This document shows, piece by piece, positions 20,625 to 48,327 of a stretch of 64,000 nucleotides of DNA; within the stretch, counting starts at the first letter, position 1; every line of letters begins with the position of its first letter. This DNA comes from Acidimicrobiia bacterium (GTDB lineage Bacteria; Actinomycetota; Acidimicrobiia; Spongiisociales; Spongiisociaceae). A program made the translations under genes and the position numbers. The notes under the pieces were generated by a model. It ran no database searches. It saw only the letters and a list, made by a program, of their open reading frames with translations, and was not told where the DNA came from. The stretch spans positions 26,577 to 90,576 of the forward strand of contig JBFGLM010000014.1 in the NCBI GenBank assembly GCA_041576165.1. Reading direction: 5' to 3'.

Positions 20625-21569
20625 CTACTTTCCGCGTCTGTGCTCGTCGTCCTCGTCCCCGGTCTTGTCCGGGTGGTTGGCCTGGCGGTCCTTGTCTCTC
20701 CTGCCGTGGTCAGCGGACTGGTCGCCGGAACCGGCGTCCGGGTCCTGGTCGCCGGCCAGCAGTGTGAAGGTGAAGCTGGCCTCGCCGCCGCTCGCAGCTT
20801 TGACCGCCACCGAGAAGGTCTCGCCGATCGGGACATTAGAGAACGAGACCCGCAGGTCCCATGTTCCCTTTTCTCCGACTCGCGTCTCGCCTGCGCCGTA
20901 CGGAGAGGTGACTTTGATCATGTCGCCCGGGTGGCCGGTGCCCCAATACACGTCGCGGGGCTTCTTTCCCTCCACCGTCCCGTACTTGTTGTTTGCAGTG
21001 AACGCGCCCGTGCGGCGGTCGACGGCCTCTTCGTTCCCATCAGTCCCGCCGGGCGCCGCGCTGGGAGATGGTCCAGGCACGTCGTAGTGCGCTGTGACCG
21101 ATGCCTCGCGCACGGTCACACCATCGGGGCTGGTGGCGTACAAGGTGGCCTTGTTCGGTCCTGGGGTCAGTACTAGTCCGATTGACCAGTTGCCTTTGCC
21201 ATCGTGCGTTGCGGCAAACCCGGCCGCCGTGACCGTCCACCCGACAGGAGCAGTCCCGCGGAATGTCACGTATTGCTCGGCGAAACGGGCTTCCGGCTGG
21301 GGGAAAGTGATCTCAAATGGGATCGCTCCGGCGGCCGCAGTGAACGAGACATCCGGGTCTGCCGGCTCACCGGACACCGAGGCCGCAACCTCGAGCAACG
21401 TTGTGGTCGGAGCGGAGGACGGCTCGGTCCCTGCGACGAATCCAGACATGACCTGTACGGGCTCAGGTGCACGCGGCGCCAGCGAGCCAGCCTTCGCCAA
21501 GGCGACCCCAGCCAGCAGCACGACGACAAAGGCCGCGCTGAAGACAGCGATGGTCCGTTTGTTGAACAA
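20625..21569 (-). CDS. Secreted protein with two Ig-like beta-sandwich domains (paralogue of 47308 anti-sigma ectodomain)
   Basis: TTG after AGGGGG RBS (GTG 21650 alternative), signal peptide ending ALA, FRGTAP..GNWSIGLVL.PGPN and DVYWGT..VTSPYG..GTW. Confidence 0.75.
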   Translation of the reverse strand: MFNKRTIAVFSAAFVVVLLAGVALAKAGSLAPRAPEPVQVMSGFVAGTEPSSAPTTTLLEVAASVSGEPADPDVSFTAAAGAIPFEITFPQPEARFAEQYVTFRGTAPVGWTVTAAGFAATHDGKGNWSIGLVLTPGPNKATLYATSPDGVTVREASVTAHYDVPGPSPSAAPGGTDGNEEAVDRRTGAFTANNKYGTVEGKKPRDVYWGTGHPGDMIKVTSPYGAGETRVGEKGTWDLRVSFSNVPIGETFSVAVKAASGGEASFTFTLLAGDQDPDAGSGDQSADHGRRDKDRQANHPDKTGDEDDEHRRGK

Positions 21570-21653
21570 GCAGTTCCCCCTGCGGGTTCGAAGATTCCCC
21601 GGGTCCGCGTGGATGATGAACTTGTGGGGGCGGTGGTCCCGCCTTCTCACACA

Positions 21654-21683
21654 AGACTCGCCCTATGGGGCCGCTGAGGTTTA
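21654..21683 (-). promoter_or_regulatory. Candidate ECF promoter TAAACC-N17-CGAGTCT
   Basis: Near-identical to TAAACC-N16-CGAGTGT upstream of the 46778 ECF sigma gene. Confidence 0.55.
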
Positions 21684-21722
21684 CCGGGTTCCTAGGAAGA
21701 ATCTGGGCGGCGGCCGTCGGGG

Positions 21723-22934
21723 TCAGGCCGCGCTCAGGGTGTGCGCCGCAGTCTCGGTGATCTGTTCGATACCCCAGCTGAGATCGTCCTCCCCGATGAT
21801 CAAGGGTGGAGCGAAGCGGACGCTGTGGCCGTGGGTGTCTTTGGCGATGACCCGTCGCTTCAAGAGGGCTTCGACGAAGTCACGCCCGCTCGGCCCCTGC
21901 GCCGGCAGATCAACTCCAGCCCAAAGACCCCGGCCGCGGACCGAGACTACGCCGTCGACTGAACGCAGCCCGCTGCGCAGCACCCGTCCGAGTTCGCGGG
22001 CGCGCTGCTGATACTCGCCGGTCTTGAGCATCGAGACGACTTCTCGCCCGATGGCGGCGGCCAGTGGGTTGCCGCCGAAGGTGCTGCCATGTTCGCCCGG
22101 CTGCAGAACGCCCATGACGGCCCAGTTGGCGACCACCGCCGAGAGCGGCACGATGCCTCCGCCCAGAGCTTTGCCAAGGATGTAAACGTCGGGTCTGACG
22201 TCGTCGTGGTCGCATGCGAAGGTGTGTCCGGTCCGGCCGAGGCCCGACTGGATTTCGTCTGCGATGAACAGCACGCCGTAGCGGGCCGTGATCGCTCTCA
22301 CCTTGCGCAAGTACCGGGGGGGCGGGGTGATGACTCCGGCTTCACCCTGGACGGGCTCCAGCAACACCGCAACGGTGGTCTCGTCGATGGCGGCTTCGAG
22401 CGCGTCGGCGTCGCCGAACGGCACCGATCGGAAGCCCGGTGTGAACGGCCCGAATCCGGTGCGAGCCTGCGGATCGTCGGAGAAGCTGATGATCGAGATC
22501 GTCCGGCCGTGAAAGTTGCCGTCGGCGACGATGATCGTCGCCGTGCCAGGTGCGACACCCTTGGCTTCGTAGCCCCATTTGCGAGCCAGCTTGAGCGCGG
22601 TTTCGACCGCCTCGGCGCCACTGTTCATCAACAGGGCCGCGTCCAGCCCGGTGAGCTCGGCCAAGTCGCGGCACAACCGACCCATCTGGTCGTTGTGTAT
22701 GGCCCGGCTGGTCAGTGTCACCTTGGCCAGCTGTCGTTCGGCGGCTGCGACCAGGCGGGGGTGGCGGTGGCCGAAGTTGAGCGCCGAATACGCCGACAGC
22801 ATGTCCAGGTAGCGGACACCCTCGACATCGGTGATCCACGCCCCCTCGGCGCACGCGGCTGCCACCGGGAGCGGGTGATAGTTGTGAGCGGCGAACCGCT
22901 CATCAGCGCGAATGATGTCGTCGTTCTTGGCCAT
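21723..22934 (-). CDS. rocD: Ornithine--oxo-acid aminotransferase
   Basis: AHNYHPLPV, YLDMLSAYSALNFGHRHP, NFHGRT, DEIQSGLGRTG, LGKALGGG, PGEHGSTFGGNP. Confidence 0.95.
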   Translation of the reverse strand: MAKNDDIIRADERFAAHNYHPLPVAAACAEGAWITDVEGVRYLDMLSAYSALNFGHRHPRLVAAAERQLAKVTLTSRAIHNDQMGRLCRDLAELTGLDAALLMNSGAEAVETALKLARKWGYEAKGVAPGTATIIVADGNFHGRTISIISFSDDPQARTGFGPFTPGFRSVPFGDADALEAAIDETTVAVLLEPVQGEAGVITPPPRYLRKVRAITARYGVLFIADEIQSGLGRTGHTFACDHDDVRPDVYILGKALGGGIVPLSAVVANWAVMGVLQPGEHGSTFGGNPLAAAIGREVVSMLKTGEYQQRARELGRVLRSGLRSVDGVVSVRGRGLWAGVDLPAQGPSGRDFVEALLKRRVIAKDTHGHSVRFAPPLIIGEDDLSWGIEQITETAAHTLSAA

Positions 22935-23779
22935 CACGCAGTCTTCGCGGCCTGAGCGCCGGTCCCGATGTCGAGCGGTAACGTCAGGCAGCGGACGGCG
23001 CCCCCCGCTTTCAAGAACTCGCCTACGGGGGTCACGACTGGGTGAAACCCGCGGCTGCGCAGCTCGTCACACAGCCGCGTACTGAGGTATGGGCTGATGA
23101 CGGTGCGGTCGATGACGATCGAGTTGGCGGCGAACTTGAGCGCTTCCTCGTCCGTGAGAAGGACGGGATCAGGGACGAGAGCTTGCAGCGTCTCCAGCCC
23201 ACGATCGGTCAGCCCGGCCGGCGCGATGAGGGCACTGTGCGAATCGAGCGGAGCGAACACCAGGTCGATGTGGTACAGACGGGGATCGGGCAGCGCGAGC
23301 GGTAGCACCGGGATCGCCAGCACCTGGCTGATGTTGCGCCAGGCGGCCCGGCTGGACCGTTGACCGTGACCGGCGATGAGTTGGTCAGCAAAGGGCAGCG
23401 CATCGCCCATACCCTCGAATGCTCCACCGGAGATGCTTTGGACAATGAAGCCATTGGCCGCAGCCCACTCGGCATAGAGCTCGGGCTCTCCGTCACGCTC
23501 GGGGAAACGCATCCGGGCAGGCAAGAACATCCCTCCGGTGACCACACCCGCATTGGCGCTGAAGACCATGTCGGGGAGGGAAGGATCTGGAGCGACCGTT
23601 TCCACCCGGCCACTTGCTTGCTCGATCGCCGTCACCAGGCCATGCCACTGGCGTTGCGCGGACGTGCGATCGACGGCAGCTTCCTGGTCCATCCAGGGGT
23701 TGATGGCATACTCCACCGTGAAGTAGTCGGGCGGGCACATGAGGTAGCGATGTCCCCAGTCGAGACTGGTCCTCTGCAT
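22934..23779 (-). CDS. Amidinotransferase-fold enzyme (DDAH / arginine dihydrolase-like)
   Basis: YLMCPP.YFTVEYAINPWM, LPDMVFSAN, FEGMGD, YHID, EFLKAGGAVRCLTL; GGAGGAG RBS; coupled to rocD. Confidence 0.85.
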   Translation of the reverse strand: MQRTSLDWGHRYLMCPPDYFTVEYAINPWMDQEAAVDRTSAQRQWHGLVTAIEQASGRVETVAPDPSLPDMVFSANAGVVTGGMFLPARMRFPERDGEPELYAEWAAANGFIVQSISGGAFEGMGDALPFADQLIAGHGQRSSRAAWRNISQVLAIPVLPLALPDPRLYHIDLVFAPLDSHSALIAPAGLTDRGLETLQALVPDPVLLTDEEALKFAANSIVIDRTVISPYLSTRLCDELRSRGFHPVVTPVGEFLKAGGAVRCLTLPLDIGTGAQAAKTA

Positions 23780-23848
23780 ACAGCTCCTCCTTCGCGTCGC
23801 CGCAGCCGCCGGTCCAGTGCCGCGGAATGGCACGGCTCGTTCACGGCT

Positions 23849-23922
23849 GGTCAATTGGATGACCGTTCAGTACAGTGTATTGTATCACTATATAATGACT
23901 AATGAGATCAATGTATTTGACC
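23849..23922. promoter_or_regulatory. AT-rich divergent control region with several TCA-N6-8-TGA-type palindromes (candidate XRE-cupin operators) and TATAAT
   Basis: GGTCAATTGGATGACC, TACAGTGTATTGTA, TCACTATATAATGA, TCAATGTATTTGA; TATAAT at 23891-23896. Confidence 0.6.
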
Positions 23923-23941
23923 GGCTGAGACGAGGTTTCCT

Positions 23942-24541
23942 GTGAGCGACGATGTGATCACTCAAGCGCCGACCGTGACCGAGGCGGTGGCCCGCAATGT
24001 ACGCGAAGCCCGCATCGAGCGGGGGTGGACCCTTGACCAACTGGCCGGCCGCTCTGGGGTCAGCAAGGGCATGGTCGTCCAGATCGAACAAGGAAGGACC
24101 AACCCCAGCATCGGTACGTTGAGCAAGATCTCCGAGGCCCTGGGAGTGTCGCTGCCGGACCTCGTGGACAACGGGGGAGCACCCACGGTGCGTGTTGTCG
24201 AAAGCGACCAGGCGGCGCTGCTGTGGGATACATCCGCCGGAAGCAGCGCGCGGCTGCTGGTCGGCGGGCGCCGGCCCGACTTCATCGAACTGTGGGAGTG
24301 GGTGCTCGTTCCCGGCGAAGAATACGAGGGCACCGTGCACCCGCTCGGGATACGCGAGCTGCTGTATGTAGACAAGGGGGTTTTGAGCTTGGCGGTGGGA
24401 GAACACGAGTACCGGCTGGCCGCGGGCACATCGGCGGCGTACCCCGGCGACCAACCTCACCGCTACCGCAACGACGGACCCGACCGAGTTCGCATATTCC
24501 TGGTCATGGTCGACCCTGGAGGAACCGGGCGCAGCGGGTGA
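23942..24541 (+). CDS. XRE-family HTH + cupin transcriptional regulator (PuuR-like)
   Basis: RIERGWTLDQLAGRSGVSKGMVVQIEQGRTNPSIGTL; cupin ELWEW..HPLGIRE..DQPHRYRN. Confidence 0.92.
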   Translation: MSDDVITQAPTVTEAVARNVREARIERGWTLDQLAGRSGVSKGMVVQIEQGRTNPSIGTLSKISEALGVSLPDLVDNGGAPTVRVVESDQAALLWDTSAGSSARLLVGGRRPDFIELWEWVLVPGEEYEGTVHPLGIRELLYVDKGVLSLAVGEHEYRLAAGTSAAYPGDQPHRYRNDGPDRVRIFLVMVDPGGTGRSG

Positions 24542-24559
24542 TCGGCAGGGTCGGAGCCC

Positions 24560-25738
24560 TCAGCCCGCCAGCTCTTTCTCGACCGGCGTCCGGAACCGGG
24601 GCGTCACCACCGTCCCGTCCAGGATCCCCTCCAGCCGGCTCACTTCTTCGTGTAACAGCGCGTCGTGTGTGGAGGAGAGCGGCTCGAACAATGCGGTGAC
24701 GATCTCACCCGTGGGGCGCTGTCCCCATCCGCCCACCACGCGGCCGTCGGCCCACAAGGTAGGACCGGCATTGCCGTTGCGGTCGAACAGACGGGCCGCG
24801 TGACTCCCGAAATACCAATCGCGCTCCTTCCAGCCCATCGGTGTGGGGTCCAGGCCTGGTAAGAGCGCCACCCACGATTCGGGCGCTGCAGTGCCTCCGA
24901 CGTCGCCGGTCAACACCCAGCCGGTGCCCTCGTCGAGCGCCACTTCGACCGCGCGGTTGGCGACCAGCGCTTCGCGTGTCTGGCGGACCGTCCACCCCGT
25001 CCACCATTTCAGGTCGTTGAATGTGCCGGGCCCGTAGCCGGCCAGCCAACGGCCGGCGAGATCCGTTCGGGCATCCGACGGATCTATGTCGGGCATCGCT
25101 CGACCCAACCACGCCTCCATGGGCGCCCACCGGTACTGGCTACTGAGCCAACTTCCTCGGGGGCGGGCACGGACGATCTTGCCTTCGGTCGCGAGCAGGA
25201 ACAGGACCCGGGTGGAGATACCCATTTCACCGGCCCACATGGCTTCGCCTCCGAACCGCAGTTTCTGTTTGAGTGCCGGCACATCGGTCGACAGTTCACG
25301 CGCCACTGCCTGCCCGCGCTGCGTCAGCGCTGCCAGCGTGCGTTGCTGCACGTCGTCGAGCCAGCCGTCTCCGTTCTGGGCGACATCTTGGTCTTCGAGC
25401 ATCTTGACCAGCTTGGTCCGCTCCCGCTTCGCGAGCGGCGCCGAGCAGCCGTGGTGGAGCAGCGGTGCGAGATCTGTAGGTACGACAAACATCGTCCGGC
25501 GCATTCCGAGCACGCGTACGAGCGTGCGGGCTGTGTAGAGCGAATTGGCGACCGCATCGATCGAAGGCTCTGCCATTCGGGCCCAGGCCGACAGATACAC
25601 GGTTGCCGGATCGCTGGAATGAAGACCGACCTGGGCCTCGGCGACCTCCTCGACTCGCTGTGCGCGGCCAATAGGGGTCAGGTGATGGCGGAGTGCGAGG
25701 CGGTGCCGACGTTCCGCGGTACTGATCGTCGGGGTCAC
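24560..25738 (-). CDS. AlkZ-like (HTH_42) DNA glycosylase, HSSD variant
   Basis: GLHSSDPATVYLSAWAR, LGMRRTMF, GYGPGT..DLKWWTG, LLPGLDPTPMGWKERDWY, FDRNGNAGP, GRVVGGW. Confidence 0.88.
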   Translation of the reverse strand: MTPTISTAERRHRLALRHHLTPIGRAQRVEEVAEAQVGLHSSDPATVYLSAWARMAEPSIDAVANSLYTARTLVRVLGMRRTMFVVPTDLAPLLHHGCSAPLAKRERTKLVKMLEDQDVAQNGDGWLDDVQQRTLAALTQRGQAVARELSTDVPALKQKLRFGGEAMWAGEMGISTRVLFLLATEGKIVRARPRGSWLSSQYRWAPMEAWLGRAMPDIDPSDARTDLAGRWLAGYGPGTFNDLKWWTGWTVRQTREALVANRAVEVALDEGTGWVLTGDVGGTAAPESWVALLPGLDPTPMGWKERDWYFGSHAARLFDRNGNAGPTLWADGRVVGGWGQRPTGEIVTALFEPLSSTHDALLHEEVSRLEGILDGTVVTPRFRTPVEKELAG

Positions 25739-26151
25739 GCCGGATGGTCGACGACGTGGGCCAGCTCATCAAGCTCAGGCATAAGGATGACGCTCTCTTG
25801 TTCATTGGGGTCGGTCCGGGCCACCAGAGCCCGGGCCGGCTCGTTCTTGCTGGCGTTCACGGGCAGATGGGGGACGCCGCCCGGGATGTACACGAAGTCT
25901 CCCGGTCCGACGTCGATTCTCTCCCGGAGCTCTTCGCCGTACCACATTGCAGCACGGCCCTCGAGCACATAGATTGCCGTCTCGTGACCGGCATGGCGGT
26001 GGGCCTTGGCCCTGCCGCCGGGCGGTATCTCGAGCAGATGGGCACACAGACTCTGGGCGCCCACCGACTCGGCCGAAACTCCCATGAACTGGTTGAGGCC
26101 TTGTTTGCTCTCGGTGCCGGTGGATGATCTGACCACCGCAACCCCTGCCAT
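25735..26151 (-). CDS. Cupin domain protein
   Basis: IPPGGRAKAHRHAGHETAIY, GDFVYIPGGVPHLPVN, ARTDPNEQESV. Confidence 0.9.
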   Translation of the reverse strand: MAGVAVVRSSTGTESKQGLNQFMGVSAESVGAQSLCAHLLEIPPGGRAKAHRHAGHETAIYVLEGRAAMWYGEELRERIDVGPGDFVYIPGGVPHLPVNASKNEPARALVARTDPNEQESVILMPELDELAHVVDHPA

Positions 26152-26223
26152 CTTCACCCCTTCTTCGGTCGACGCCGAGGCTACCGGGGAGGGACGCCAC
26201 CCTCACAGTGGGGGAAGCAGTGT

Positions 26224-26901
26224 TCAGTTCGACTTCGAATCGGGGTCGGCGTTCACTTCGGCTGCGAGCCGGTTCCGATCGAGGACCCGGATGCTGCGGT
26301 ACCCCGTTTCGACCAGCCCGGCTTCGGCGAGTTCAGACAGCGACCGGTTGATCGTCTGACGGCGTACTCCCAACATGGCGGCCATCGTGGTCTGGGACAT
26401 CTCGACGTGCCCGGCATCGTCGGCGTGTTCGACGAGCAGGCCTGCAACTTGCTGGCGGGCCGTGCGTCCAAGCAACAGCTCCAGCTGGTCGTGGGATTCG
26501 CCGAGCGCACGCATCGCCGCCGTCAGAAATGCAAGCGACAGCGACGTGCTCGACTCCAGCAGCGGGATCAGTTTGCGGCGGTCGAACCAGTAGATCTCGC
26601 AGTACGTCGCCACGTAGGCGCTCGACTGGTACGGCACGTTGAGGAACATCGAGATGTCGCCGATGAACTTGCCGCTGCCGGGTCGCGTGATGATTCGCTG
26701 GCGACCGTTGTGTCGGGAAACCTCGACGATCCCACGCAAGATCAGATGGCAGTACCGGGATGGCTCTCCCTGGTCGAAGACTTTGTCACCGGGTCGGTAG
26801 ACGATCACGTCCCCGCATTCGGCCAGTGCCTCCAGGTCGGCCCGCGACGGGCGTTTCCCGAGCGTCGCCCGTAAGGTCCGGATCAGGCGTGGGTTGCTCA
26901 T
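26224..26901 (-). CDS. Crp/Fnr family transcriptional regulator
   Basis: cNMP-binding fold (VFDQGEP..ILRGIVEV..GDI) and HTH MSQTTMAAMLGVRRQTINRSL; GGAGG RBS. Confidence 0.88.
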   Translation of the reverse strand: MSNPRLIRTLRATLGKRPSRADLEALAECGDVIVYRPGDKVFDQGEPSRYCHLILRGIVEVSRHNGRQRIITRPGSGKFIGDISMFLNVPYQSSAYVATYCEIYWFDRRKLIPLLESSTSLSLAFLTAAMRALGESHDQLELLLGRTARQQVAGLLVEHADDAGHVEMSQTTMAAMLGVRRQTINRSLSELAEAGLVETGYRSIRVLDRNRLAAEVNADPDSKSN

Positions 26902-27113
26902 CTGTGGTCCTCCCGGCCGAGCGGTGCGGGTGGTCGGCGCCCGGATCATCGCCGCCTGTTCGAGACCGCTCAATCTTGCCGGTTGGTCCGGGGCCGCCCT
27001 TGCTTGTGGACGTGGAGTCACAGGTTAGAAGGATTGATCGTGCGGTTGCTGCAATGCGCCTGTCGGGAAGTCGCAGGCCAGACGGGACGGCAGGTGGTGT
27101 GGGAACGGCGATC

Positions 27114-28007
27114 CTACGGCCTCACCTGCTGGGCGAGGCGCGCGTACGGCGATGCTCCCCGTGTCGACACGCCACTCAGACCCGACTCGAGTTCCCCGCG
27201 GGCGGCGCCGAGGATCGCTTCGACGGCGATCCCTCCGGCTTCCGGATCGTCTGGGTCGACCAGCTCGGAATGGCGGGTGTTGGCGACGTGTAGACCGGGG
27301 TGGTGGCCGGCGTCGACCAGCCGTTCGTAATAGCTCTCGGCGTGGTCGATCGGCACATTGGTGTCGCGCACGCCGTGGATCAGCATCATCGGCACATCGA
27401 CGGACCGACCTGTTTTGCCTTCCGGGGTGAAGTGAGAGGCGTCGACCTCGCCCCACAGCGTTTGGATTCGCCATCCGTAGTGGTAGGCGCCACCCAGGCC
27501 GATGAAAGCTTCCGGGACGTGGGAGATGTGGTCCAGGCAGCTGAAGTCGTAACCGCCGTGCGGGGTCAGCGCTAAACCCGACCCGGGCAGGCCGCCGTAG
27601 GAGAAGCCAACCAGTATCAGGTTGTCCGGATCTGCGCCGTACCGGGAGGCCTGGTTGCGGGCGTAGCGGACCGAACAGACCACATCTTCGAAGGTGTCTC
27701 GAACGGCCTGGCGAGTCCGCGGCTGGCCGCTGTAGTAGGTGGGGACAAAAACGGCTGCACCCCTCGATGCAACGGCTTGGGCCAGACGGTGCATATCGCC
27801 GTTGCCTGTGTTCCCGCCACCGTGCAGCAGAACCACGAGCGGAACGGGTTCGTCGCCGGGTTCGGCTGGAGCGAATAGGTCAATCGTCTGGGTGTTGGGT
27901 CCGGTCAAGTCGTGGATGACCGTGACCTCCTGCGCACCGGAGGCGGCCGGTACCGACAGCAATCCGAAGGCAATTATGGATGCGATGGTGCGGGCTGTAT
28001 GTGACAT
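27114..28007 (-). CDS. Secreted alpha/beta hydrolase (esterase-like)
   Basis: Signal peptide, LLHGGG, GFSYGG nucleophile elbow, IHGVRD.NVP, H near C-terminus. Confidence 0.88.
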   Translation of the reverse strand: MSHTARTIASIIAFGLLSVPAASGAQEVTVIHDLTGPNTQTIDLFAPAEPGDEPVPLVVLLHGGGNTGNGDMHRLAQAVASRGAAVFVPTYYSGQPRTRQAVRDTFEDVVCSVRYARNQASRYGADPDNLILVGFSYGGLPGSGLALTPHGGYDFSCLDHISHVPEAFIGLGGAYHYGWRIQTLWGEVDASHFTPEGKTGRSVDVPMMLIHGVRDTNVPIDHAESYYERLVDAGHHPGLHVANTRHSELVDPDDPEAGGIAVEAILGAARGELESGLSGVSTRGASPYARLAQQVRP

Positions 28008-28073
28008 GCCCGCACCGTCCGGCGCAGCACTTACAGATCGCTCAGGCTGGGCCTAACACCGGCTGGACCCCCT

Positions 28074-28093
28074 GAAAGGTGCGAGAAAGGTGC
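28074..28093. promoter_or_regulatory. 9-bp direct repeat with 11-bp period, candidate SARP binding site
   Basis: GAAAGGTGC-ga-GAAAGGTGC between the hydrolase and the SARP gene. Confidence 0.6.
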
Positions 28094-28164
28094 TCGGGGT
28101 GGGATTGTCGGGACCGGCAACGCCGGTGTCGGCGTAGCCTTGATCGAGGATGGAGGGGCCGGCC

Positions 28165-39820: not shown

Positions 39821-39824
39821 GTTC

Positions 39825-40420: not shown

Positions 40421-40448
40421 ATATCGACTACCGAAAGTGGTTTCTTGA
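40421..40448 (-). promoter_or_regulatory. Candidate sigma-28 (FliA/WhiG-type) promoter
   Basis: Minus strand TCAAG-N15-GTCGATAT, resembling the TAAA-N15-GCCGATAA consensus. Confidence 0.5.
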
Positions 40449-40455
40449 AAGCGAA

Positions 40456-40676: not shown

Positions 40677-41054
40677 AGCGTTCGCCGCGAGGCCAGGGCG
40701 CTCCCCACCAGCCAGGCCAGCATGCCGTTTGCGCAGATGATCCATGGCCGGACCCGTCGGCCTCGAGCCCGGCCAGCGCCAGGAATCCGAACGTGATGGC
40801 GGTGATCATCGCGACGCCAAGACCCGTCGCCATGCCGCTGAGCTGGATTTGGCGCTGCAGCTCGTCCACCCGCTGGAGGTGGCGCACGATCGCCAGACAA
40901 CCCCACATCGCCGGGATCAGCGGGGCCAGCGCAACGCCGAGCTTCCAGCGCCACCGGTGTCAAAGTCAACCAGCACGAAGATGGTGGCCAGGACCGCGGC
41001 ATATCCGATCACGGCTGGCAGGAACTCGCGGAGGTACGTCTGACCGGTCTGCAC
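40673..41054 (-). pseudogene. Small membrane protein with at least two frameshifts
   Basis: YLREFLPAVIGYAAVL / LAPLIPAMWG..RVDELQRQIQL..TFGFL / PWIICANGMLAW are separated by frameshifts; GTGA overlap with HTH gene. Confidence 0.75.
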
Positions 41055-41099
41055 CTCGAAGGTTCACGACGCGAATGTAAACCTCGTTTCTTTCCATTA

Positions 41100-41117
41100 T
41101 GTCAAGGATGCTTTCCA
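41100..41117. promoter_or_regulatory. Candidate operator of the small HTH regulator
   Basis: Imperfect palindrome TGTCAAGGATGCTTTCCA upstream of the pseudogene pair. Confidence 0.4.
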
Positions 41118-41145
41118 GCAGTAACGGCGCTCTAGGGTGCGGGCG

Positions 41146-42174
41146 ATGTTCGACCATCCCGAGTACGACGGTCACGAGTCGGTCACCTACGTATCCGAGC
41201 GGGCATCCGGACTCCACGCCATCATCGCCATCCATTCGACGGTGTTGGGGCCGGCTGGCGGAGGGGTGCGCATGTTCGATTACGAGCGCACTGACCTCGC
41301 CCTCACCGACGCGCTCCGGCTCTCGAAAGGCATGACCTACAAAGCGGCAATGAGCGACTTGCCCTTCGGCGGCGGCAAGGCGGTTGTCATCGGCGACCCG
41401 GCCAGAAAGACCGATCGCCAGTTTGAGGCGTTGGGCGATGCGATCGAGGCACTCGGCGGCAGGTACTTCTGTGGAGAAGATGTCGGGACGACCCCAGACG
41501 ACATGGCAGTCATACATCGCCGCACCTCGTACGTGGTGGGTCTCCCGGGCAAGACAGGCGACCCGTCTCCGGCGACGGCGGAGGGGGTCTACGTGTCGAT
41601 CCTGGCCGCGGTGGCCCATGTATTCGGCAGCAGCGACCTCCGCAATCGACATGTGGCCGTCCAGGGCCTGGGCAACGTGGGTGCCCGCCTGGTTGAATTG
41701 CTGGCCGGAGCTGGTGCCCGGCTCACGGTCGCCGATCTCGATACCAGCAAAGTCGACAGAGCCCGGGCGCGTTTTGGCGCGGCGGCAGCGGCGCCGGAAG
41801 CGATCCACAAGGTGGCGGCAGCTGTGTTCAGCCCATGTGCATTGGGGGCGGTGGTCAACGACTCGACCGTTGACGAGATCGGCGCCCGCATCATCTGCGG
41901 CAGTGCCAACAACCAGCTGGCGACCCCTCAGCACGGCCGGCTGCTGCACGAACGCGGGGTTGTATATGTGCCGGACTACGTGGCGAGCGTCGGTGGAGCG
42001 ATCTCGGCGATGCGGGAGCGAATCGATTACGTCGAGGGCGAGTACAAACGCCGTATCGCCGGAGTAGGCGAGCGGGTCAGGCAGCTGCTCGAGCGATCAG
42101 TGACTGCCGGCGAACCTCCTGCGCAGGCGGCTGATGCGATCGCCCGTTCGATCGTGGAAGCCGCCCACGGCTGA
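41146..42174 (+). CDS. Glu/Leu/Phe/Val dehydrogenase (leucine/valine dehydrogenase-like)
   Basis: IAIHSTVLGPAGGGVR, LSKGMTYKAA, GGGKAVVIG, GEDVGT, QGLGNVG, GSANNQL. Confidence 0.93.
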   Translation: MFDHPEYDGHESVTYVSERASGLHAIIAIHSTVLGPAGGGVRMFDYERTDLALTDALRLSKGMTYKAAMSDLPFGGGKAVVIGDPARKTDRQFEALGDAIEALGGRYFCGEDVGTTPDDMAVIHRRTSYVVGLPGKTGDPSPATAEGVYVSILAAVAHVFGSSDLRNRHVAVQGLGNVGARLVELLAGAGARLTVADLDTSKVDRARARFGAAAAAPEAIHKVAAAVFSPCALGAVVNDSTVDEIGARIICGSANNQLATPQHGRLLHERGVVYVPDYVASVGGAISAMRERIDYVEGEYKRRIAGVGERVRQLLERSVTAGEPPAQAADAIARSIVEAAHG

Positions 42175-42190
42175 AGGCTCTTCGCGTTGG

Positions 42191-42925
42191 CTAGGTACTG
42201 AGGACGACGCCAAAGCCGCGCGCCGCCAACTCCAGCACGACGTACCGCGGCTCTATGAGGTCTTCGACCCGTCGCCGGGAGAGCTCACCCAGCTCGGAGA
42301 TCCGAGCCGTGTAGCTGCCGTCACGGCGGGCATGTGACAGGATCCGGGCGTTGGCCCAGACCTTGGCGCGCGCTTCCTTCAGGAAGCGCTTGGTGCCGAG
42401 CCGGTTGAACGGTGTGAGCAGCCGGTCGACTAGCGTCCGGTCTCCCGGCTGTTCCACCTTCTCCAGCTGTTTGTCTTCTGCCGCGACCCGGGATGCGAGG
42501 ATGTCGTCGATGCGCCGGTGATCGACCTCCCGCCGCCCGATCACGCCCGGGTCATCGAACTCGGCGTCGGTGATGACGGCGACCAAGGCTTGGGGGAGGT
42601 CGTAGTTGATGTGAGCGTTCATACCAAGGAGGACCATCCGCAGCGGTGGCAGGCGGGTTTCGTCGCTCGCCGTGAACGCCACTTCCCATGGGCCCGGGGC
42701 AGTGGTGTCGGCGGTCCACTCCTCGAGGGCCTCGAGGTAGAGCTCGGCGAACACGACGTCCCAGCGTTCGACCCAATCCGGGTCGAGGAAGACTCCGTCC
42801 GCCAGGGCCTCGCCAACTGCGATGGTGGTGCGCAGGTAGGTGTCGTGAAAGTACCGCCGCGGGTCGGCTGGTGCGAAGTCCCCGGATCTGTCCTGCATAT
42901 CGGCAATGACCGTCTCGAGGCTCAT
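42191..42925 (-). CDS. DUF5995-like protein
   Basis: F...YLRTT, FLDPDWVERWDVVFAELYL, LGMNAHINYDLPQAL, DHRRIDDIL. Confidence 0.8.
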   Translation of the reverse strand: MSLETVIADMQDRSGDFAPADPRRYFHDTYLRTTIAVGEALADGVFLDPDWVERWDVVFAELYLEALEEWTADTTAPGPWEVAFTASDETRLPPLRMVLLGMNAHINYDLPQALVAVITDAEFDDPGVIGRREVDHRRIDDILASRVAAEDKQLEKVEQPGDRTLVDRLLTPFNRLGTKRFLKEARAKVWANARILSHARRDGSYTARISELGELSRRRVEDLIEPRYVVLELAARGFGVVLST

Positions 42926-42988
42926 GAGGTCCAGCCTAGATTCACCACTCGCCGATCGGTCCCTCTCGCCTTTGGGCCCCGTCCTGGC

Positions 42989-43801
42989 TCACGAGAACTC
43001 GGCGTTCGATGACTCCCTCGCACGAAAATACTGCTCGGTGGCGTCGTCGGCCGGGAAGAAGAGTTCGATGACTAGCTCCTGAATCGTTATGTCCCGGGGC
43101 GAGCCAATGGTCGCGAGGGTCGAGAACATTTTGATTTCGATCGTCCCTCGGCGCATATGCAGCGGCAGGACGAAGTCCGCCGACCGCTCGACGTCGCCGG
43201 TGGTGCGCTCGCCGACCCCGAGCATTGCCGTCGCCTCCTCGATCAGCTCTTGGAGGTGGGCGTCGGCCGGATCGGCGATCAGCTCCCGTCGCAGCCGGAC
43301 CGCGGTCGCGGCGGCCAGCTCCTCCAGATTCACGATGTGCTGGCCCAAGCCGGTCGGGTGCGTGAACAGACGGAGCAAGTTCCCGCCCGCCGCCTCGATC
43401 GACTCGGGGGAAGCCCACTCGAGCGTGAACGTAGTGGCCGCCTGGTTGGCCCGGACCAAGTTCCAGTGGCGGTCGAGGGCCACGGCCGGGTATGGGTCGT
43501 GGCGCTCCAGCATCAGATCGATCGCCCGCTTCACCGAGGCCATCTCGGGATCCTCCAGCGCCGTTTCCTGATATTGAGGCGCAAAACCGGCGGCATGGAG
43601 CAGGACGTTGCGCTCGCGGAGTGGCACGTCCAGGCCCTCGGCCAGATGAAGCACGAGTTCGCGGCTCGGTTTGGACTTGCCGGTTTCCACGAACGAGAGG
43701 TGTCGCTGGGATACCCCGGTTGCCTCGGCGAGTGCCAGCTGGCTCAAGCGTCGATGCTCCCGCCACTCCTTGAGCAGGGGGCCGATTGGTCGGGTCGCCA
43801 T
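42989..43801 (-). CDS. XRE HTH regulator with MmyB-like ligand-binding domain
   Basis: LLKEWREHRRLSQLALA..SQRHLSFVETGKSKPSRE, PYPAVALDRHWN, DITIQELVIELFFPAD. Confidence 0.9.
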   Translation of the reverse strand: MATRPIGPLLKEWREHRRLSQLALAEATGVSQRHLSFVETGKSKPSRELVLHLAEGLDVPLRERNVLLHAAGFAPQYQETALEDPEMASVKRAIDLMLERHDPYPAVALDRHWNLVRANQAATTFTLEWASPESIEAAGGNLLRLFTHPTGLGQHIVNLEELAAATAVRLRRELIADPADAHLQELIEEATAMLGVGERTTGDVERSADFVLPLHMRRGTIEIKMFSTLATIGSPRDITIQELVIELFFPADDATEQYFRARESSNAEFS

Positions 43802-43907
43802 ACACCCAAATGTACCGACCTCCTCGCTGCGTGACGATGACCTGTCAGGTAATTGCAGTCATGACCCGCCGACCGCACGATGGGGTTGAGCTTCTGAGGA
43901 GGAACGC

Positions 43908-44315
43908 ATGACAGCCACGACCGCGTCGATCGATGCAATACTGCGCCGCGTCTTGCAGGCCAACGCGGCGTTCAGCCTGGCATCGGGGCTCGCTTTGGTG
44001 CTCGCCGCCGGTCCGCTGGCGGGCTTCAGTGGTATCGAGCCGATCGTTCTACGAGCCGTCGGCATCGGGCTCCTCCCATGGGCAGCCTTCGTTTTCCACA
44101 CTTCCCGGCGTGCCGCGTTGCGCCGTCGCGAGGTGCTCGTCGTGATCGCCGGCGATCTCGCCTGGGTGGCCGGAACGATCATCCTCGCTCTTGCAGCATT
44201 CTCAGCATTCACGGTGGCCGGACTGATCACGTTGTTGGTGCTGGGCGCCATCGTCGCCGACTTGGCCGCAGCACAAATCATCGGGTTGCGGCGGATGGGT
44301 GCGGAGGGCAGCTGA
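43908..44315 (+). CDS. Four-helix integral membrane protein, divergent from regulator
   Basis: LRRVLQANAAFS, four hydrophobic segments, DLAWVAGT; GAGGAGG RBS. Confidence 0.8.
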   Translation: MTATTASIDAILRRVLQANAAFSLASGLALVLAAGPLAGFSGIEPIVLRAVGIGLLPWAAFVFHTSRRAALRRREVLVVIAGDLAWVAGTIILALAAFSAFTVAGLITLLVLGAIVADLAAAQIIGLRRMGAEGS

Positions 44316-44317
44316 CG

Positions 44318-44737
44318 TCAGGCGGTACGGCGGGCGCGTTTGTCGCGCAACAGCGCAAGCAGCGCCAGCGCATATGCGTCCGGGGCGGAGCCGGCGGTCT
44401 CGTGGCTCTCCCGGCCTTCGAGCCGGAACGTGCACCGGTAGCCATCGATGGTTTGATCCAGACGGACGAATGCCTCGCCCACGGCGTCGCGGAGCTGGGA
44501 TTCAGTCGGCAGCCACACAACATCCTCCGACAGAATCCAGTCGAGCGACCACTCGACCGCGCCGTTGAACGTGATCGCGCGAAGCGGACCGAATTCGTGG
44601 ATTTCGGTCGAGAGATCGTTGATCGCAAAGATCTGCCCGTCGAGGTCCCGGTCGGGGATCGCAAAGCGATCGTGCTCCCGGGGCTCCCATACGAGGCCTG
44701 CTTCTTGAAGCTCTCGTGCCAGTTCGAGTGAAACCAC
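44318..44737 (-). CDS. Conserved actinobacterial hypothetical protein
   Basis: SLELARELQEAGLVWEP..DRF, FNGAVEWSLD, WLPTESQLR; TAGCCT 7 nt before GTG. Confidence 0.8.
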   Translation of the reverse strand: MVSLELARELQEAGLVWEPREHDRFAIPDRDLDGQIFAINDLSTEIHEFGPLRAITFNGAVEWSLDWILSEDVVWLPTESQLRDAVGEAFVRLDQTIDGYRCTFRLEGRESHETAGSAPDAYALALLALLRDKRARRTA

Positions 44738-44813
44738 AGACCGGAGGCTACCTGGTCGCGGCCTGTGTATGAGCCCGATACCATGCCCGGTTCCCGACTG
44801 CGGAGGCCACCGG

Positions 44814-45320
44814 ATGCCGATGAGTGACACGCTCGCTGGTGCGTACAACGACCAGATATCCCTCGAATTCTCGTCGTCGCACACCTACCTGCAGCTGGCT
44901 GCCTACTTCTCGACTCAGAGCCTCACCGGCTTCGAGGCGTGGATGCGGACTCAGGCGGAGGAGGAGCGGGCACACGCCGTGAAATTCTTCGACTTTGTGC
45001 TCGACCGGGGCAACCAGGTGCGGCTGGGCCCCATCGAGGCGCCGGGAGCTGTCCCGGGCAGCCCGCTGGAGGCGTTTGAGTTGGCACTACGCCAGGAACA
45101 GGATGTCACCGCCAGTATCGGCGAGCTGCTCAATCTCGCTCAGCGGGAGGGAGACGCCGCCTCCTACCCACTGCTGCAGTGGTTCATGAACGAGCAGGTG
45201 GAAGAGGAGTCGACGGTCGGCGAGATCGTCGATCAGTTGCGGTTCGCGAACGGCAACCCAGCTGCGATCCTCATGCTCGATCGCGAGTACGCCACCCGGG
45301 AGCCGGCCCCGCCGGCCTGA
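44814..45320 (+). CDS. Non-heme ferritin
   Basis: NDQISLEF, QAEEERAHA, LRQEQDVT, LQWFMNEQVEEE; GGAGG RBS. Confidence 0.93.
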   Translation: MPMSDTLAGAYNDQISLEFSSSHTYLQLAAYFSTQSLTGFEAWMRTQAEEERAHAVKFFDFVLDRGNQVRLGPIEAPGAVPGSPLEAFELALRQEQDVTASIGELLNLAQREGDAASYPLLQWFMNEQVEEESTVGEIVDQLRFANGNPAAILMLDREYATREPAPPA

Positions 45321-45463
45321 ACACGCGCGCCAATCGACCATCACCCCGAGCCCGGGTAACGAACGCATGCCACCAACCGGGCGCGAAAACGCCGGCTCGC
45401 GGACGCGTTGTGATCACACGGGTGCCGCAACGCAGGGCCCAACGCTGCTGCGCGCTCTGAGGT

Positions 45464-46609
45464 TCACAACCCTTCCGTGATCTGGGCCCAGGCCGCCGAG
45501 TCCGGATCGATGAGATCCATGTGATCGACCCCATCGAGCCACATGGTCTCGACATCGTCGCCGGCCCGTGCCGCGCGTTCGGCATATGACCGGCTCACCT
45601 GCTGCGGGACGTCCTCGTCATGGGACCCGTGGACGATCAGCTGCGGTACCCCTACCGGAACTTGTTCGATCGGTGAGGCCGCAGGAATTACCGTGGTCGC
45701 CTCGGTGCCAAGGAACCGATGGGGTCCGTTCTGCGGATCTTCTGGATCGTGGAGCGCCGCCAGATCCAACACTCCGGCTAGCGAAACAACGCGGCTGGGC
45801 GAGATCCGCTCACTTCGGGTTGCCGCCAGCAAGGCCAGTAGGGCCCCCGCGGAATGCCCGATGAGTGTCACGTTGCCCGGGTCGCACGGTGATGTCATCG
45901 CGATCTCGGAAACGTGGTCGAGCGCAGCAACTGCGTCCGCCAGCGTGGACCGCCATCCTCCAATCGGAGGTATCCGCCGGTACTCGACGTTCCAGGTCGC
46001 GTAGCCGCGCCGGGAGAGGTCGACGGCCATCCCGTCCATCAGGTCGCGGGTCCAGAGGTCGCGCCAGTAGCCACCATGGAAGAGAACGACCAGCGGCCGG
46101 GTTTCTGTCCCCGGCGGGACGCGCAAGTCGCCGACCTGGTCGGAGTGGGCGCCGTACGCCAGCGTCGAGAACGGCAGCGCTGCCCGATGGACGAGATGCC
46201 ACATTGCCCACCGATAGCCCTCCACGCCCCGGCCGAAGATCTGTTACACGGCGGCGGGCTCGATCACGCTGCGGGCCCGGTACGGTTCCCGATCCCGGAT
46301 ATTGGAGATGTGGACCTCGACGGTGGGGATGCGGGACGCGGCGACGGCATCGGCGATCGCGTAGGAAGTATGGGCGAACGCACCAGGGTTGAGCACGATC
46401 CCGTCGAACCCGGCGCCGGCCTCTTGGATCGCGTCGATGATTGCACCCTCGTGGTTGGTCTGGACGGTCTCGACCTCCACGCCGAGCCGGTCACCCCACG
46501 CAGCACAACCTTGATCGAGCCCCGGCAACGTGAGGGTCCCGTAGATGGAAGGCTCCCTGATCCCCAGCAGGTTCAGATTCGGCCCGTGGATCACCAGAAT
46601 ACGCCGCAC
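45464..46609 (-). pseudogene. aroQ: Type II 3-dehydroquinate dehydratase fused to alpha/beta hydrolase, interrupted by in-frame TAA at 46244-46246
   Basis: HGPNLNLLG.REP.IYG, NPGAF.H.S, VEVHISNI..RE; same frame continues *QIFGRGVEGYRWAM into HGGYW..GHSAG..HG..D..H hydrolase. Confidence 0.8.
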
Positions 46610-46695
46610 CGGGCGGAGGTTACCGCTGGCGGGTCAGTCGTCGACTGGGCCTTATTCACCATCAGCGGTTACCGTTCCTGAATCGCCCCGATCGA

Positions 46696-46724
46696 TAAAC
46701 CTTCTTCGACCCCCGAACGAGTGT
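46696..46724 (+). promoter_or_regulatory. Candidate autoregulatory ECF promoter TAAACC-N16-CGAGTGT
   Basis: ~55 nt upstream of the ECF sigma start; matching copy at 21654-21683. Confidence 0.55.
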
Positions 46725-46777
46725 ACGGGTGAACACACGACAGCGATCAAGGCGGGGTCGAAGTCCAGCACGGAGCC

Positions 46778-47311
46778 GTGATGAGCAAGGCCCAGAGCGA
46801 CCACCCAGGGGTGGTGACGCTTCCGGAGGACTTTGATTCCTTCTACCAGCGGGAGTTCCGTTCGGTGGTTGCCCTCGCGTATGCCCTGTCAGGGAGCCGC
46901 ATCGCGGCTGAGGATTTGGCGCAGGAGGCGTTTATTGCAGCACATCAGCAGTGGGACCGGGTGGGCCGATACGAGGCCCCAGGAGCCTGGGTTCGACGTG
47001 TTGTGTCCAACAAATCGGTTTCGTTGTTCCGCAAGCGGACCTCGGAGGCCAAGGCCTTGTCCCGCATCGGCCTCGGCCGCCAGGAAGCAATCCGGGAACT
47101 GGATGAACCCTCAGATGAGTTCTGGGATATGGTGCGAGACCTTCCCAAACGGCAGGCCCAGGCGGTGGCCTTGCATTACCTGGAGGACCGGCCGATCGCC
47201 GAGGTCGCTGAGATCCTCGAATGTTCGGAAAGCACTGCGAAAGTGCATCTACACAAGGCACGAAAGACGCTCGCCAAGCGTCTCAAGACCATGGACCGTG
47301 ATCTGATATGA
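46778..47311 (+). CDS. ECF sigma factor (actinobacterial SigE-like family)
   Basis: FDSFYQRE..LAYALSGS..AEDLAQEAF..W, AWVRRVVSN, LPKRQAQAVALHYLED..EVAEIL..STAKVHLHKAR. Confidence 0.93.
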   Translation: MMSKAQSDHPGVVTLPEDFDSFYQREFRSVVALAYALSGSRIAAEDLAQEAFIAAHQQWDRVGRYEAPGAWVRRVVSNKSVSLFRKRTSEAKALSRIGLGRQEAIRELDEPSDEFWDMVRDLPKRQAQAVALHYLEDRPIAEVAEILECSESTAKVHLHKARKTLAKRLKTMDRDLI

Positions 47312-48327
47312 CCATCCTGGACGAACGAGCTCGCCACGCGGCGAGAGAGTTGAATAGCGCAGTGGCGGAAGCCGACCTGCTGTTGTTCGAGTCGGGTATC
47401 CCCGCACTTCGTCAAACGCCGGTCGTCACCCACAATCGGTCGCGCACCTTCGTATTCGCCGGCGCATTTGCGGCTGTGTTGCTGTTCGTCGGTCTGACAC
47501 TTGCTCCGGGCCGCATGACTGCACCGACCGATCCTGAGGGCGAAGCTGCCACCAGGCAGCCCAGCCCTGCCGCTGATGTTGTGACTGTGGACGGTGATCC
47601 AGATGCGAGAACACCGACAACGGCCGACGGCGAAGGCGCTCCGGTGACATCGATTGCAGTGGCCGACCTGACCCCTCCTGCCATCACCGTTACGTCACCA
47701 GAGAACGATGCTGAGTACACGGCCGACGACTTCGGTGGCGCGGCTGTCCCGCTGGTCGAGTTCAGCGGCAGCGCCGAGCCGGGATCGACCGTCGTGGCTC
47801 GCACCGGCGTCGACCCGGAGCCGACAGTCGCGGTCGGCCCAGACGGACTGTGGTCGATCGAGCTGATTCTGCAGGCCGGGACCAATCCGGTCCGCTTCAC
47901 AGCGTTTGATGCGGCGGGGAACGAGCAGGACGCCACGGTGACGGTCACCTACACACCGGAGACGTCCGCCACAACGACCACCACCCAGCCGGCCGTCGAA
48001 AGTCCGCCGAAGGATGATCCGTCGGGGGAGGATCGTCGGGAAACCCCAGACGATGCTCCCTCGACGGTCGCCTTTACTGCGGCCGCCACCGCGGGTGAGG
48101 CCTCCGGCAATCCGGCGACGGACGTCTTCTCTGGCACCGCCGCTACCGGCTCGCGAGTCACACTGACCTCCGAGTACGGCGACGCAACTGCGGTCGCAGG
48201 CGCTGATGGCACCTGGAGCGTCACGATGGCCTTCCGGAATGCCCCGCTCGAGCAGCCCTTCCTGGTCACCGCCGCAGATGACTCAGGAAACCGGCTGAAG
48301 CTCGAATTCGTGGTCCGCGCCGGCTGA
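47308..48327 (+). CDS. Putative anti-sigma factor with single TM and extracellular Ig-like domains
   Basis: ATGA overlap with sigma; LDERARHAA N-terminus, TM FVFAGAFAAVLLFVGL, DLTPPAITVTSP..DAAGN Ig-like motif. Confidence 0.75.
   Translation: MTILDERARHAARELNSAVAEADLLLFESGIPALRQTPVVTHNRSRTFVFAGAFAAVLLFVGLTLAPGRMTAPTDPEGEAATRQPSPAADVVTVDGDPDARTPTTADGEGAPVTSIAVADLTPPAITVTSPENDAEYTADDFGGAAVPLVEFSGSAEPGSTVVARTGVDPEPTVAVGPDGLWSIELILQAGTNPVRFTAFDAAGNEQDATVTVTYTPETSATTTTTQPAVESPPKDDPSGEDRRETPDDAPSTVAFTAAATAGEASGNPATDVFSGTAATGSRVTLTSEYGDATAVAGADGTWSVTMAFRNAPLEQPFLVTAADDSGNRLKLEFVVRAG

Follow-up and report, generated by a model that had tools for sequence, protein, structure and literature searches.

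Why should the outer part of a membrane-anchored anti-sigma factor and a secreted protein encoded on the same contig be copies of each other, and why should both genes lie behind the same promoter motif? This question is raised by a 64,000-nucleotide stretch of an Acidimicrobiia bacterium, here called the window (positions 26,577 to 90,576 of contig JBFGLM010000014.1, assembly GCA_041576165.1), which carries a gene pair for an extracytoplasmic function (ECF) sigma factor and its putative anti-sigma factor and, on the reverse strand, the gene for a secreted paralogue of the anti-sigma ectodomain. Pairs of ECF sigma and anti-sigma factors abound among bacterial signalling systems, mostly with an undefined signal. 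In this case comparison points to the signal: the main product and the outer part of the sensor are one and the same protein. The pairing, the paralogy and the shared, conserved promoter all emerge from sequence and its comparison among genomes.

The window is part of contig C14 in a 161-contig, 5.1-Mb assembly (G000) that is 96.5% complete with 7.5% contamination. It was compared with 40 related genomes (41 with its own) and with 43 public loci from metagenome-assembled genomes (MAGs), which were drawn from species-representative genomes, partly the same ones; the related public records are titled Acidimicrobiia MAGs. The MAG loci were gathered by a scan with the anti-sigma alignment, and the -10 word was relaxed to CGNNT for the motif counts. 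One genome, G039, enters only the denominators of the sigma-orthologue, small-RNA and co-occurrence counts. Our own labels for genomes (G), contigs (C) and loci (L) are used where needed.

The sigma gene and its membrane-bound partner

The sigma gene lies at 46778..47311 on the forward strand, from a GTG at 46778 or an ATG at 46781, and encodes a protein of 177 residues recognized by Pfam and NCBIfam models. Pfam places Sigma70_r2 at residues 23-88 (46.5 bits) and Sigma70_r4_2 at residues 113-165 (59 bits), and the protein passes the general model TIGR02937 (sigma70-ECF) with 76.6 bits against a cut-off of 42.9. It has domains 2 and 4 only and falls within the range of about 170-200 residues that defines ECF (group 4) factors. 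The best NCBIfam model is that of the SigE family (TIGR02983), whose curated threshold of 141.55 bits the protein does not reach (123.1 bits), and its sole sequence match in the Protein Data Bank is SigW (5wuq, E 1.2e-10). Orthologues with 55-84% identity occur in 11 of the 40 related genomes, and in nine of these 11 the downstream gene carries the ectodomain described below. The neighbours of the operon are also conserved: the gene for a type II dehydroquinase is divergent from it, and a lipoate-ligase-like gene is convergent.

The second gene (47308..48327, forward strand) begins within a 4-nt ATGA overlap with the sigma stop codon and encodes 339 residues with the layout of a single-pass anti-sigma factor. 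In an AlphaFold2 model built on ten orthologues a helix at residues 3-22 and a membrane helix are followed by disorder to about residue 120 and by two immunoglobulin (Ig)-like domains, D1 (residues 125-216; 47680-47955) and D2 (residues 256-337; 48073-48318), where the predicted local distance difference test score (pLDDT) is mostly above 90, with ten-residue block means of 83-97. A hydrophobic stretch at residues 48-66 (47449-47505), modelled as a membrane helix over residues 51-64, leaves a cytoplasmic part of about 45 residues with the helix 3-22 as its single predicted element. None of the known anti-sigma domains (class I ASD, zf-HC2, RskA, RsgI_N, FecR) was matched by the 339-residue protein in Pfam at E<=1 or in NCBIfam at E<=0.01. 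Across ten orthologous loci, the window counted, the N-terminus is conserved with the consensus TLDxRARxAA and invariant D5, R7 and A8, the ectodomain is kept, and the 4-nt overlap recurs in seven.

Modelling of the sigma factor together with anti-sigma residues 1-48, both supplied as ten-row alignments, gave a complex score of 0.81, compared with 0.10 for the best control; 116 of 157 solved complexes attain that mark, as do 2 of 215 mismatched pairs. The runs agreed in at least 69% of contacts with a partner pLDDT of at least 62, and they place the N-terminal helix of the anti-sigma (residues 2-26; 47311-47385) in contact with residues 24-49 and 104-169 of the sigma, where it lies between domains 2 and 4. 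The prediction supports binding of sigma by this helix. With the Pfam assignment, the conserved overlap and the complex score pointing the same way, we are close to certain that 46778-47311 and 47308-48327 form a sigma/anti-sigma pair, as a preliminary description of this DNA had proposed.

Paralogous sigmas, about 45-56% identical to that of the window, were seen at 19 further loci (L016-L035) of G000 and its relatives. At all 19 the product of the next gene opens with a short N-terminal segment ahead of a hydrophobic one, in most cases continues with a Pro/Thr-rich stretch, and has a large ectodomain of a different kind; 15 of the loci have the 4-nt gene overlap. At several the -35 word TAAACC is common to the window, but the -10 word is of the GTGTG type. 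The set has the look of a single sigma/anti-sigma design that has multiplied within this lineage.

The secreted paralogue and the promoter motif

The secreted paralogue, a protein of 314 residues, is encoded at 20625..21569 on the reverse strand. Its predicted signal peptide (residues 1-25; 21495-21569) has K4/R5 as basic residues, is hydrophobic over 7-22 and carries A23-x-A25, and by these features would be a substrate of Sec and signal peptidase I. AlphaFold2 gives a hydrophobic helix at residues 4-26, disorder to about residue 80, D1 (residues 86-162; 21084-21314), D2 (residues 191-270; 20760-20999) and a charged, disordered tail. Both models share one layout, with disordered stalks of 55-60 residues. 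The tail, of about 40 residues (20628-20750, reverse strand), is found in none of the eight other anchorless copies, hereafter orphans, of the orphan alignment.

The start of the paralogue is taken as the TTG at 21569, which is preceded by a Shine-Dalgarno-like GGGGGA and agrees with the starts of orphans in relatives. Since these open with one or two basic residues and a hydrophobic stretch followed by an invariant A-x-A (9 of 9 copies), the TTG start of the window copy is fixed by them. Both A23 and A25 are invariant in the nine orphan copies, and the A-x-A is absent at that place from the anti-sigma orthologues; this conservation argues for release of the orphan copies by signal peptidase. 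A longer reading from a GTG at 21650 (341 residues) was dropped in favor of the TTG with its GGGGGA and its match to orphan starts, the GTG lying only 6 nt past the -10 word, and a leaderless start at 21650 is possible.

Anti-sigma and paralogue were aligned by BLASTP over 316 columns, membrane segment included, with 31% identity and an E-value of 6e-17. Smith-Waterman scores compared with 500 shuffles gave z-values of 19.3 for the ectodomains, 6.1 for D1, 17.8 for D2 and 4.9 for the membrane segment plus linker, and in each of these the observed score was reached by none of the shuffles; the cross-domain controls gave z 1.1 (anti-sigma D1 against paralogue D2) and z 3.6 (anti-sigma D2 against paralogue D1). 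A search of the genome itself with the anti-sigma protein (E<=0.01) returned five places, all of them family members: the anti-sigma gene, the secreted paralogue, a gene on contig C11 and two tandem D2 repeats of one gene on C107. Because this search returned the family and nothing else, generic Ig likeness does not explain the match. The two-domain alignment reported in the preliminary description thus reflects real paralogy, which extends over the membrane segment, the linker, D1 and D2 and exceeds what the Ig fold in general would give. The relation of sensor and product that had been drawn from it stands in its paralogy; what did not hold is its exclusiveness, as the paralogue is nearer to the C11 protein than to the window anti-sigma and the genome has at least four family members rather than two.

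The anti-sigma protein scores 29.3 bits with Big_13 (cut-off 27) and 49.6 with Ca_tandemer (cut-off 50), the model that its D2 comes near to, and the paralogue 16.3 with Glucodextran_B (cut-off 27) and 20.9 with Ca_tandemer (cut-off 50). Big_13 finds four weak places in the whole genome, two of which are the anti-sigma and paralogue genes. Profile searching with the orphan alignment collected 128 protein clusters at E<=1e-10, in which every match named by its source is a ‘hypothetical protein’ and the precomputed Pfam domains of plausible relevance are Ig-like families only; for this Ig-like family of at least 128 clusters the present locus provides a first context. By Foldseek, D1 and D2 of the anti-sigma resemble tandem Ig-like surface proteins (E 9e-8 to 7e-6, identities 10-22%), among them the Deinococcus HPI S-layer protein (8cka), SiiE (2yn3/2yn5), the Marinomonas ice-binding adhesin (4p99), Bap (7dm0) and RbmA (4be6). 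The TM-scores of about 0.2 are low because the orientation of the domains in the model is arbitrary. Unlike tandem-Ig adhesins with their tens of domains, the window proteins have two.

The two other family members of the genome differ in context. At C11:46780-50727 (L002) a second ECF sigma, 24% identical to that of the window, is followed by an anti-sigma-like partner that bears an orphan-type ectodomain (genes 789-1370 and 1363-2472 of the locus) and has an A-x-A directly after its membrane segment; the TAAACC/CGAGT motif described below was not seen upstream of this sigma. The C11 system may have its orthologues at five MAG loci whose sigmas are distant (L122, L123, L125, L128 and L129). 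The fourth member (C107:7340-7987; L003/L005), which has the two D2 repeats in tandem, is truncated where its contig ends. In an alignment of 53 ectodomains a lone cysteine occupies one D2 column in 29 of 32 anti-sigma ectodomains and is lost in G000, G005 and G010; the first D2 of the orphans has Cys at this column in 9 of 21 and Ser in 10. Its conservation as the single cysteine outside the cytoplasm hints at a function in disulfide or thiol chemistry, which the window’s own pair would have lost.

Upstream of the sigma operon an ECF-type promoter can be read at 46696..46722 (forward strand; TAAACC, 16 nt, CGAGT), ending 55 nt before the sigma start, and the corresponding motif of the secreted paralogue lies at 21656..21683 (reverse strand; TAAACC, 17 nt, CGAGT), about 86 nt before the TTG. 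Against an expectation of 0.01, the whole window has these two matches to TAAACC-N16/17-CGAGT and no other, and none of 100 shuffles contained two; the motif noted earlier at both loci is therefore real, with a spacer of 16 nt at the sigma operon and 17 nt at the paralogue. The entire genome has eight strict matches, compared with about two estimated from base composition. In having a putative promoter of its own, AAC-type at -35 and CG-type at -10, the sigma gene resembles other ECF factors.

The motif is conserved on both sides of the proposed link. It stands at the same relative position upstream of sigma in the orthologous loci L007 and L010-L015, and about 280 nt upstream in G005 and G010. 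Eight of nine orphans, that of the window included, have GGTAAACC-N16(17)-CG(A/T)(G/C)T shortly upstream: in G004, G025, G026, G029, G037 and G040 it lies 36-106 nt before the first aligned residue, and in G038 302 nt before residue 86. The exception is G027, in which the region upstream of the orphan has no TAAACC and no sigma/anti-sigma gene pair with this ectodomain was found, the nearest sigma (56%) being followed by another ectodomain. Among the MAG loci the motif precedes the sigma operon in 28 of 28 with an orthologous sigma (>=58% identity; 23 with strict CGAGT, five with CGTGT or CGATT), 6 of 6 orphans with upstream sequence (three strict) and, some 26 nt off on the other strand, 5 of 5 divergent second copies beside the sigma operon; it precedes 0 of 5 with a distant sigma (<=32% identity). 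Four of the 43 MAG loci are cut off upstream and could not be assessed. The expectation that the motif would be conserved, in a genome-wide scan and in orthologous upstream regions alike, was thus confirmed.

Strict scans of whole genomes narrow the link further. In G026, G029 and G037 there are two matches each, namely the sigma operon and the orphan, and G040 has these two and one other. The single match in G025 is the orphan, its sigma promoter reading CGATT, and the single match in G038 is an unrelated site, sigma and orphan promoters both reading CGTGT. A reversed-pattern control gave 0-3 matches per genome. The -10 word also tends to change jointly: the rare variant CGTGT is found in both promoters of G038 and in both of the pair L104/L117, which have one assembly prefix in common, and the common CGAGT in both promoters of most other pairs, those of G004 (CGAGT/CGACT) and G025 (CGATT/CGAGT) being one base apart. 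We infer that the sigma reads both promoters, and the secreted paralogue is very likely a direct target of the window sigma. Judged by sequence, what is conserved as the core of the regulon comprises the sigma operon and, in free form, a copy of the sensor itself.

Sensor and orphan also recur together. Searching the 11 sigma-bearing genomes with the secreted protein found an anchorless copy in eight (G004, G025, G026, G027, G029, G037, G038 and G040), so that co-occurrence across related genomes, one of the checks proposed for this locus, came out in its favor. The ectodomain family is present in 14 of 41 genomes; in the 21 same-family genomes of genera g2, g3, g4 and g7 neither the family nor, at E<=1e-20, the sigma was found. 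The joint pattern of motif, sensor and orphan extends over several families of one order. In G038 and five MAG loci sensor and orphan lie back to back with overlapping divergent promoters. The distance between them is 6 kb in G026, 8 kb in G040, 10 kb in G029 and about 13 kb on the contig of L115/L124, and in the remaining relatives they are on different contigs. The separation of the two parts by 25 kb, emphasized in the preliminary description, is correct for the window but fails as a rule, and with adjacency in six relatives and 6-13 kb in others it appears to be a local accident.

A tree of D1 and D2 (53 rows, 189 columns) places 15 of 20 orphans in one clade, with a Shimodaira-Hasegawa-like approximate likelihood ratio test (SH-aLRT) value of 99 and the C11 anti-sigma-like protein inside it; orphans with three repeats (G029, G040 and L124) make up a clade apart. 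This tree comes from a quick search with SH-aLRT values only and has long branches, and one orphan in it, L109, is cut 400 nt upstream, so that its label may be wrong. A tree of D2 only (27 rows, 86 columns) leaves 13 of 24 inner branches open and was not used for the order of events. Since most orphans fall into one old clade, sensor and product would long have been kept side by side, and the tree fits an old duplication followed by long co-retention, with an unusually diverged copy in the window.

Proposed coupling of sensor and product

We hypothesize that these parts make up a conserved ECF signalling module of Acidimicrobiia. In such a module sigma would be translationally coupled to a single-pass anti-sigma factor, which would hold it by a short N-terminal helix between sigma domains 2 and 4 and would display a disordered stalk and two Ig-like domains outside the cell. 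Sigma, once released, would read TAAACC-N16/17-CGAGT at its own promoter (autoregulation) and at that of the paralogue, whose product consists of stalk, Ig1 and Ig2 and lacks the cytoplasmic sigma-binding segment. Sensor and product may keep one fold by binding the same extracellular partner, for instance a protease, a ligand or some component of wall or surface; in that case the condition that calls for the free copy would be reported by the tethered one, and accumulation of the free copy would damp the signal. We infer this coupling from the minimal core regulon and from the RsgI6/Xyn10D precedent discussed below, with the long co-retention of sensor and product as a further, likewise indirect, argument. 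Given the pair and the target, coupling through a shared partner is somewhat favored, and the explanation taken as a whole, module and shared-partner feedback together, has in our estimate an even chance of being right. Direct contact between sensor and product is unlikely. We likewise consider it improbable that the cell gauges its own secreted protein by the tethered copy, with a homotypic Ig-Ig contact in which occupancy of the sensor by the product sets the release of sigma; in most relatives such a contact could be made through the single conserved D2 cysteine (29 of 32 sensors). If true, that would be a self-contained, product-sensing loop, with what it senses as its single conserved output.

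The closest precedent is RsgI6 of Clostridium thermocellum. Its GH10 sensor domain is 57% identical to Xyn10D, the released sigma-I6 recognizes the xyn10D promoter, sigma-I6 is autoregulated, and the products of xyn10D, xyn10Y and xyn10Z bind the same polysaccharide as the sensor (PMC4711584). As in that system, the outer module of the anti-sigma factor is a paralogue of the product of a promoter that the sigma recognizes. However, the window sigma is of the ECF type and its partner has a helix of about 25 residues, whereas the precedent has a sigma-I factor and an RsgI_N domain; the window sigma fits ECF models, and Pfam found no RsgI_N match, which sets it apart from the sigma-I/RsgI group. 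Moreover, the window product copies the entire extracytoplasmic part, with the membrane segment turned into a signal peptide, whereas with RsgI6 the shared module is one domain among many products, and in several relatives of the window genome the product is the only other target that bears the motif.

Classical ECF pairs such as SigW-RsiW and the Streptomyces SigE family share with the window the two-domain sigma, an AAC...CG-type promoter of autoregulatory kind, a spacer of 16-17 nt and a co-transcribed membrane anti-sigma factor; the promoters of S. coelicolor SigE are described as having AAC at -35, TC at -10 and spacers of 16 or 17 bp (PMC6767563). The window pair differs in its anti-sigma N-terminus, which matches no Pfam or NCBIfam anti-sigma domain, in a cytoplasmic part of about 45 residues and in a sigma below the SigE-family cut-off. 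In Bacillus subtilis the sensor anti-sigma factor RsgI and the effector PBP1 bear the same kind of extracytoplasmic element and answer the same envelope cue, according to the abstract of that work (PMC9732909). There the shared element is disordered, whereas here it is a folded paralogous ectodomain, and the abstract does not describe PBP1 as a product of the sigma. ECF sigmas, membrane anti-sigma factors, Ig-like surface domains and a sensor module that is a paralogue of a product (sigma-I/RsgI) are accordingly all known already. In the open-access full texts we found no ECF pair in which a product reproduces all of the anti-sigma factor’s outer part and is a conserved, sometimes sole, other target, nor any description of the short helical anti-sigma segment or of the Ig-like protein family.

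The same pair and regulon could also exist with no functional coupling, the secreted Ig-like surface or wall protein being a mere output and its likeness to the sensor a leftover of duplication, in which a copy of the anti-sigma gene lost the cytoplasmic segment and retained the operon promoter. We find this possible rather than probable. Homology of membrane segment, linker and both domains is what a truncated duplicate would show, and the back-to-back arrangement in G038 and five MAG loci suits such an origin; the ectodomain is also attached to the anti-sigma of the unrelated C11 sigma, as if modules had been shuffled, the identity of sensor and product is only about 31%, and the D2 cysteine is kept in 29 of 32 sensors but in 9 of 21 first D2 domains of orphans. 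Yet a leftover would not be expected, to argue from conservation, to retain its fold and promoter over several families of an order, nor to stay the only other genome-wide match to the motif in three genomes. It is far less likely that a different ECF sigma of the same genome, one of the paralogues about 50% identical or that on C12, reads the paralogue promoter, which would make the link to the window sigma wrong or shared. To this reading belong the strict motif upstream of an ECF sigma gene at C12:59112-59138, the TAAACC -35 word that paralogous sigmas share in combination with other -10 words, and the 17-nt spacer of the window paralogue; it is opposed by the restriction of the strict motif to sigma operon and orphan in G026, G029 and G037, by the joint change of the -10 word in both promoters of a genome and by the adjacency or nearness of the two genes in many relatives. 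Finally, mere chance, that is, generic Ig-fold similarity combined with a fortuitous short motif, could be invoked with both domains being Ig-like, Foldseek matches to generic tandem-Ig surface proteins and weak Pfam matches, but a shuffle z of 19.3 with 0 of 500 shuffles at the score, own-genome matches at E<=0.01 that are all family members, and a motif expected 0.01 times per window and conserved at dozens of orthologous sites make it extremely improbable.

The shared-partner feedback, and the pair and target on which it builds, must nevertheless be held against a number of observations that weigh against them. The evidence for promoter use comes from conservation of the motif. The paralogue of the window has a spacer of 17 nt, and every other site seen has 16. 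Other ECF sigmas of the genome might read the motif: two paralogues are about 50% identical to the window sigma, and the C12 sigma has the strict motif. The complex prediction may partly mirror likeness to known structures, because ECF/anti-sigma complexes have already been solved. As to history, the paralogue is nearer to the C11 anti-sigma-like protein (E 3e-30) than to the window anti-sigma, it sits on a very long branch of the D1 and D2 tree (1.9-2.1 changes per column), and the D2-only tree, contrary to that of D1 and D2, groups the orphan of G038 with the anti-sigma of that genome. The searches of G005 (72% complete) and G010 (78% complete) gave no orphan, and G034 has a family member and no sigma match at 1e-20, the gene starting 503 nt from a contig end. 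The counts of motifs and orthologues overstate independence, because the compared genomes are kin. Lastly, sigma/anti-sigma operon and paralogue are both on C14, and the further candidate members of the regulon are mostly on other contigs of this MAG, whose contamination is 7.5%.

Should the coupling prove real, it would amount to a natural and compact scheme by which a surface protein is kept in homeostasis at the product level, and the logic of RsgI6, in which the sensor is a copy of the product, would be carried from polysaccharide breakdown in Firmicutes to ECF sigmas of Actinomycetota. For an uncultured lineage the system is open to testing with as few parts as two promoters and three proteins.

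Further candidate regulon members and neighbouring genes

A position weight matrix built from 16 sites, two of them from the genome itself, was used to scan that genome, and four sites stood far above the rest: C14:5031 (30.2 bits), before a candidate small RNA; the promoter of sigma and anti-sigma (30.1 bits); C25:910 (27.1 bits), before a gene for an M23 peptidase with signal peptide and SLH domain; and, in fourth rank, the secreted paralogue (25.4 bits). In this genome the regulon probably also takes in the M23/SLH peptidase and the candidate small RNA. The peptidase gene (C25:3-910, L086) was confirmed by Pfam, and the same type of gene stands behind the motif in G010 (L083, C586), which suggests that the sigma also controls a wall hydrolase; a protein of G010 with SLH repeats (L080) is likewise encoded behind the motif. 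The further candidate members, the hydrolase described below among them, all have envelope-directed functions.

The candidate small RNA (C14:5031-5180) lies about 21.4 kb before the first base of the window. It has the highest promoter match in the genome and no gene behind it, and would form a long hairpin with a CU-rich, anti-Shine-Dalgarno-like loop of 17-19 nt. Among the 41 genomes searched it occurs only in G000, G005 (L074, C13) and G010 (L066, C8), where the loop is identical and the stems differ; the loci of G005 and G010 have an extra strong second hairpin. No Rfam family matched these regions at E<=0.1.

On C12 the strict TAAACC-N16-CGAGT at 59112-59138 (L087) lies 73 nt upstream of another ECF sigma gene, which encodes 184 residues (688-1239 of the locus, reverse strand). 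This could mean cross-regulation or overlapping specificity.

Within the window a GDSL/SGNH hydrolase gene (19797..20564, reverse strand; Lipase_GDSL_2, 72.4 bits) follows the paralogue at a distance of 60 nt, and a GDSL homologue follows the orphan copy in G004 (L054), G029 (L055) and L124. No terminator-like site was found in the gap between paralogue and hydrolase, and a scan of 18900-21800 gave no sigma-70 promoter, its only terminator-like site lying within a gene. By this arrangement the hydrolase is probably co-transcribed with the paralogue. The end of its gene is overlapped by that of a membrane-anchored Thr-rich protein (19069-19875, reverse strand), and the paralogue operon may comprise three genes. 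A 59-residue stretch of the Thr-rich protein has a match of 46% identity about 1.3 kb downstream of the orphan in G026 (L039).

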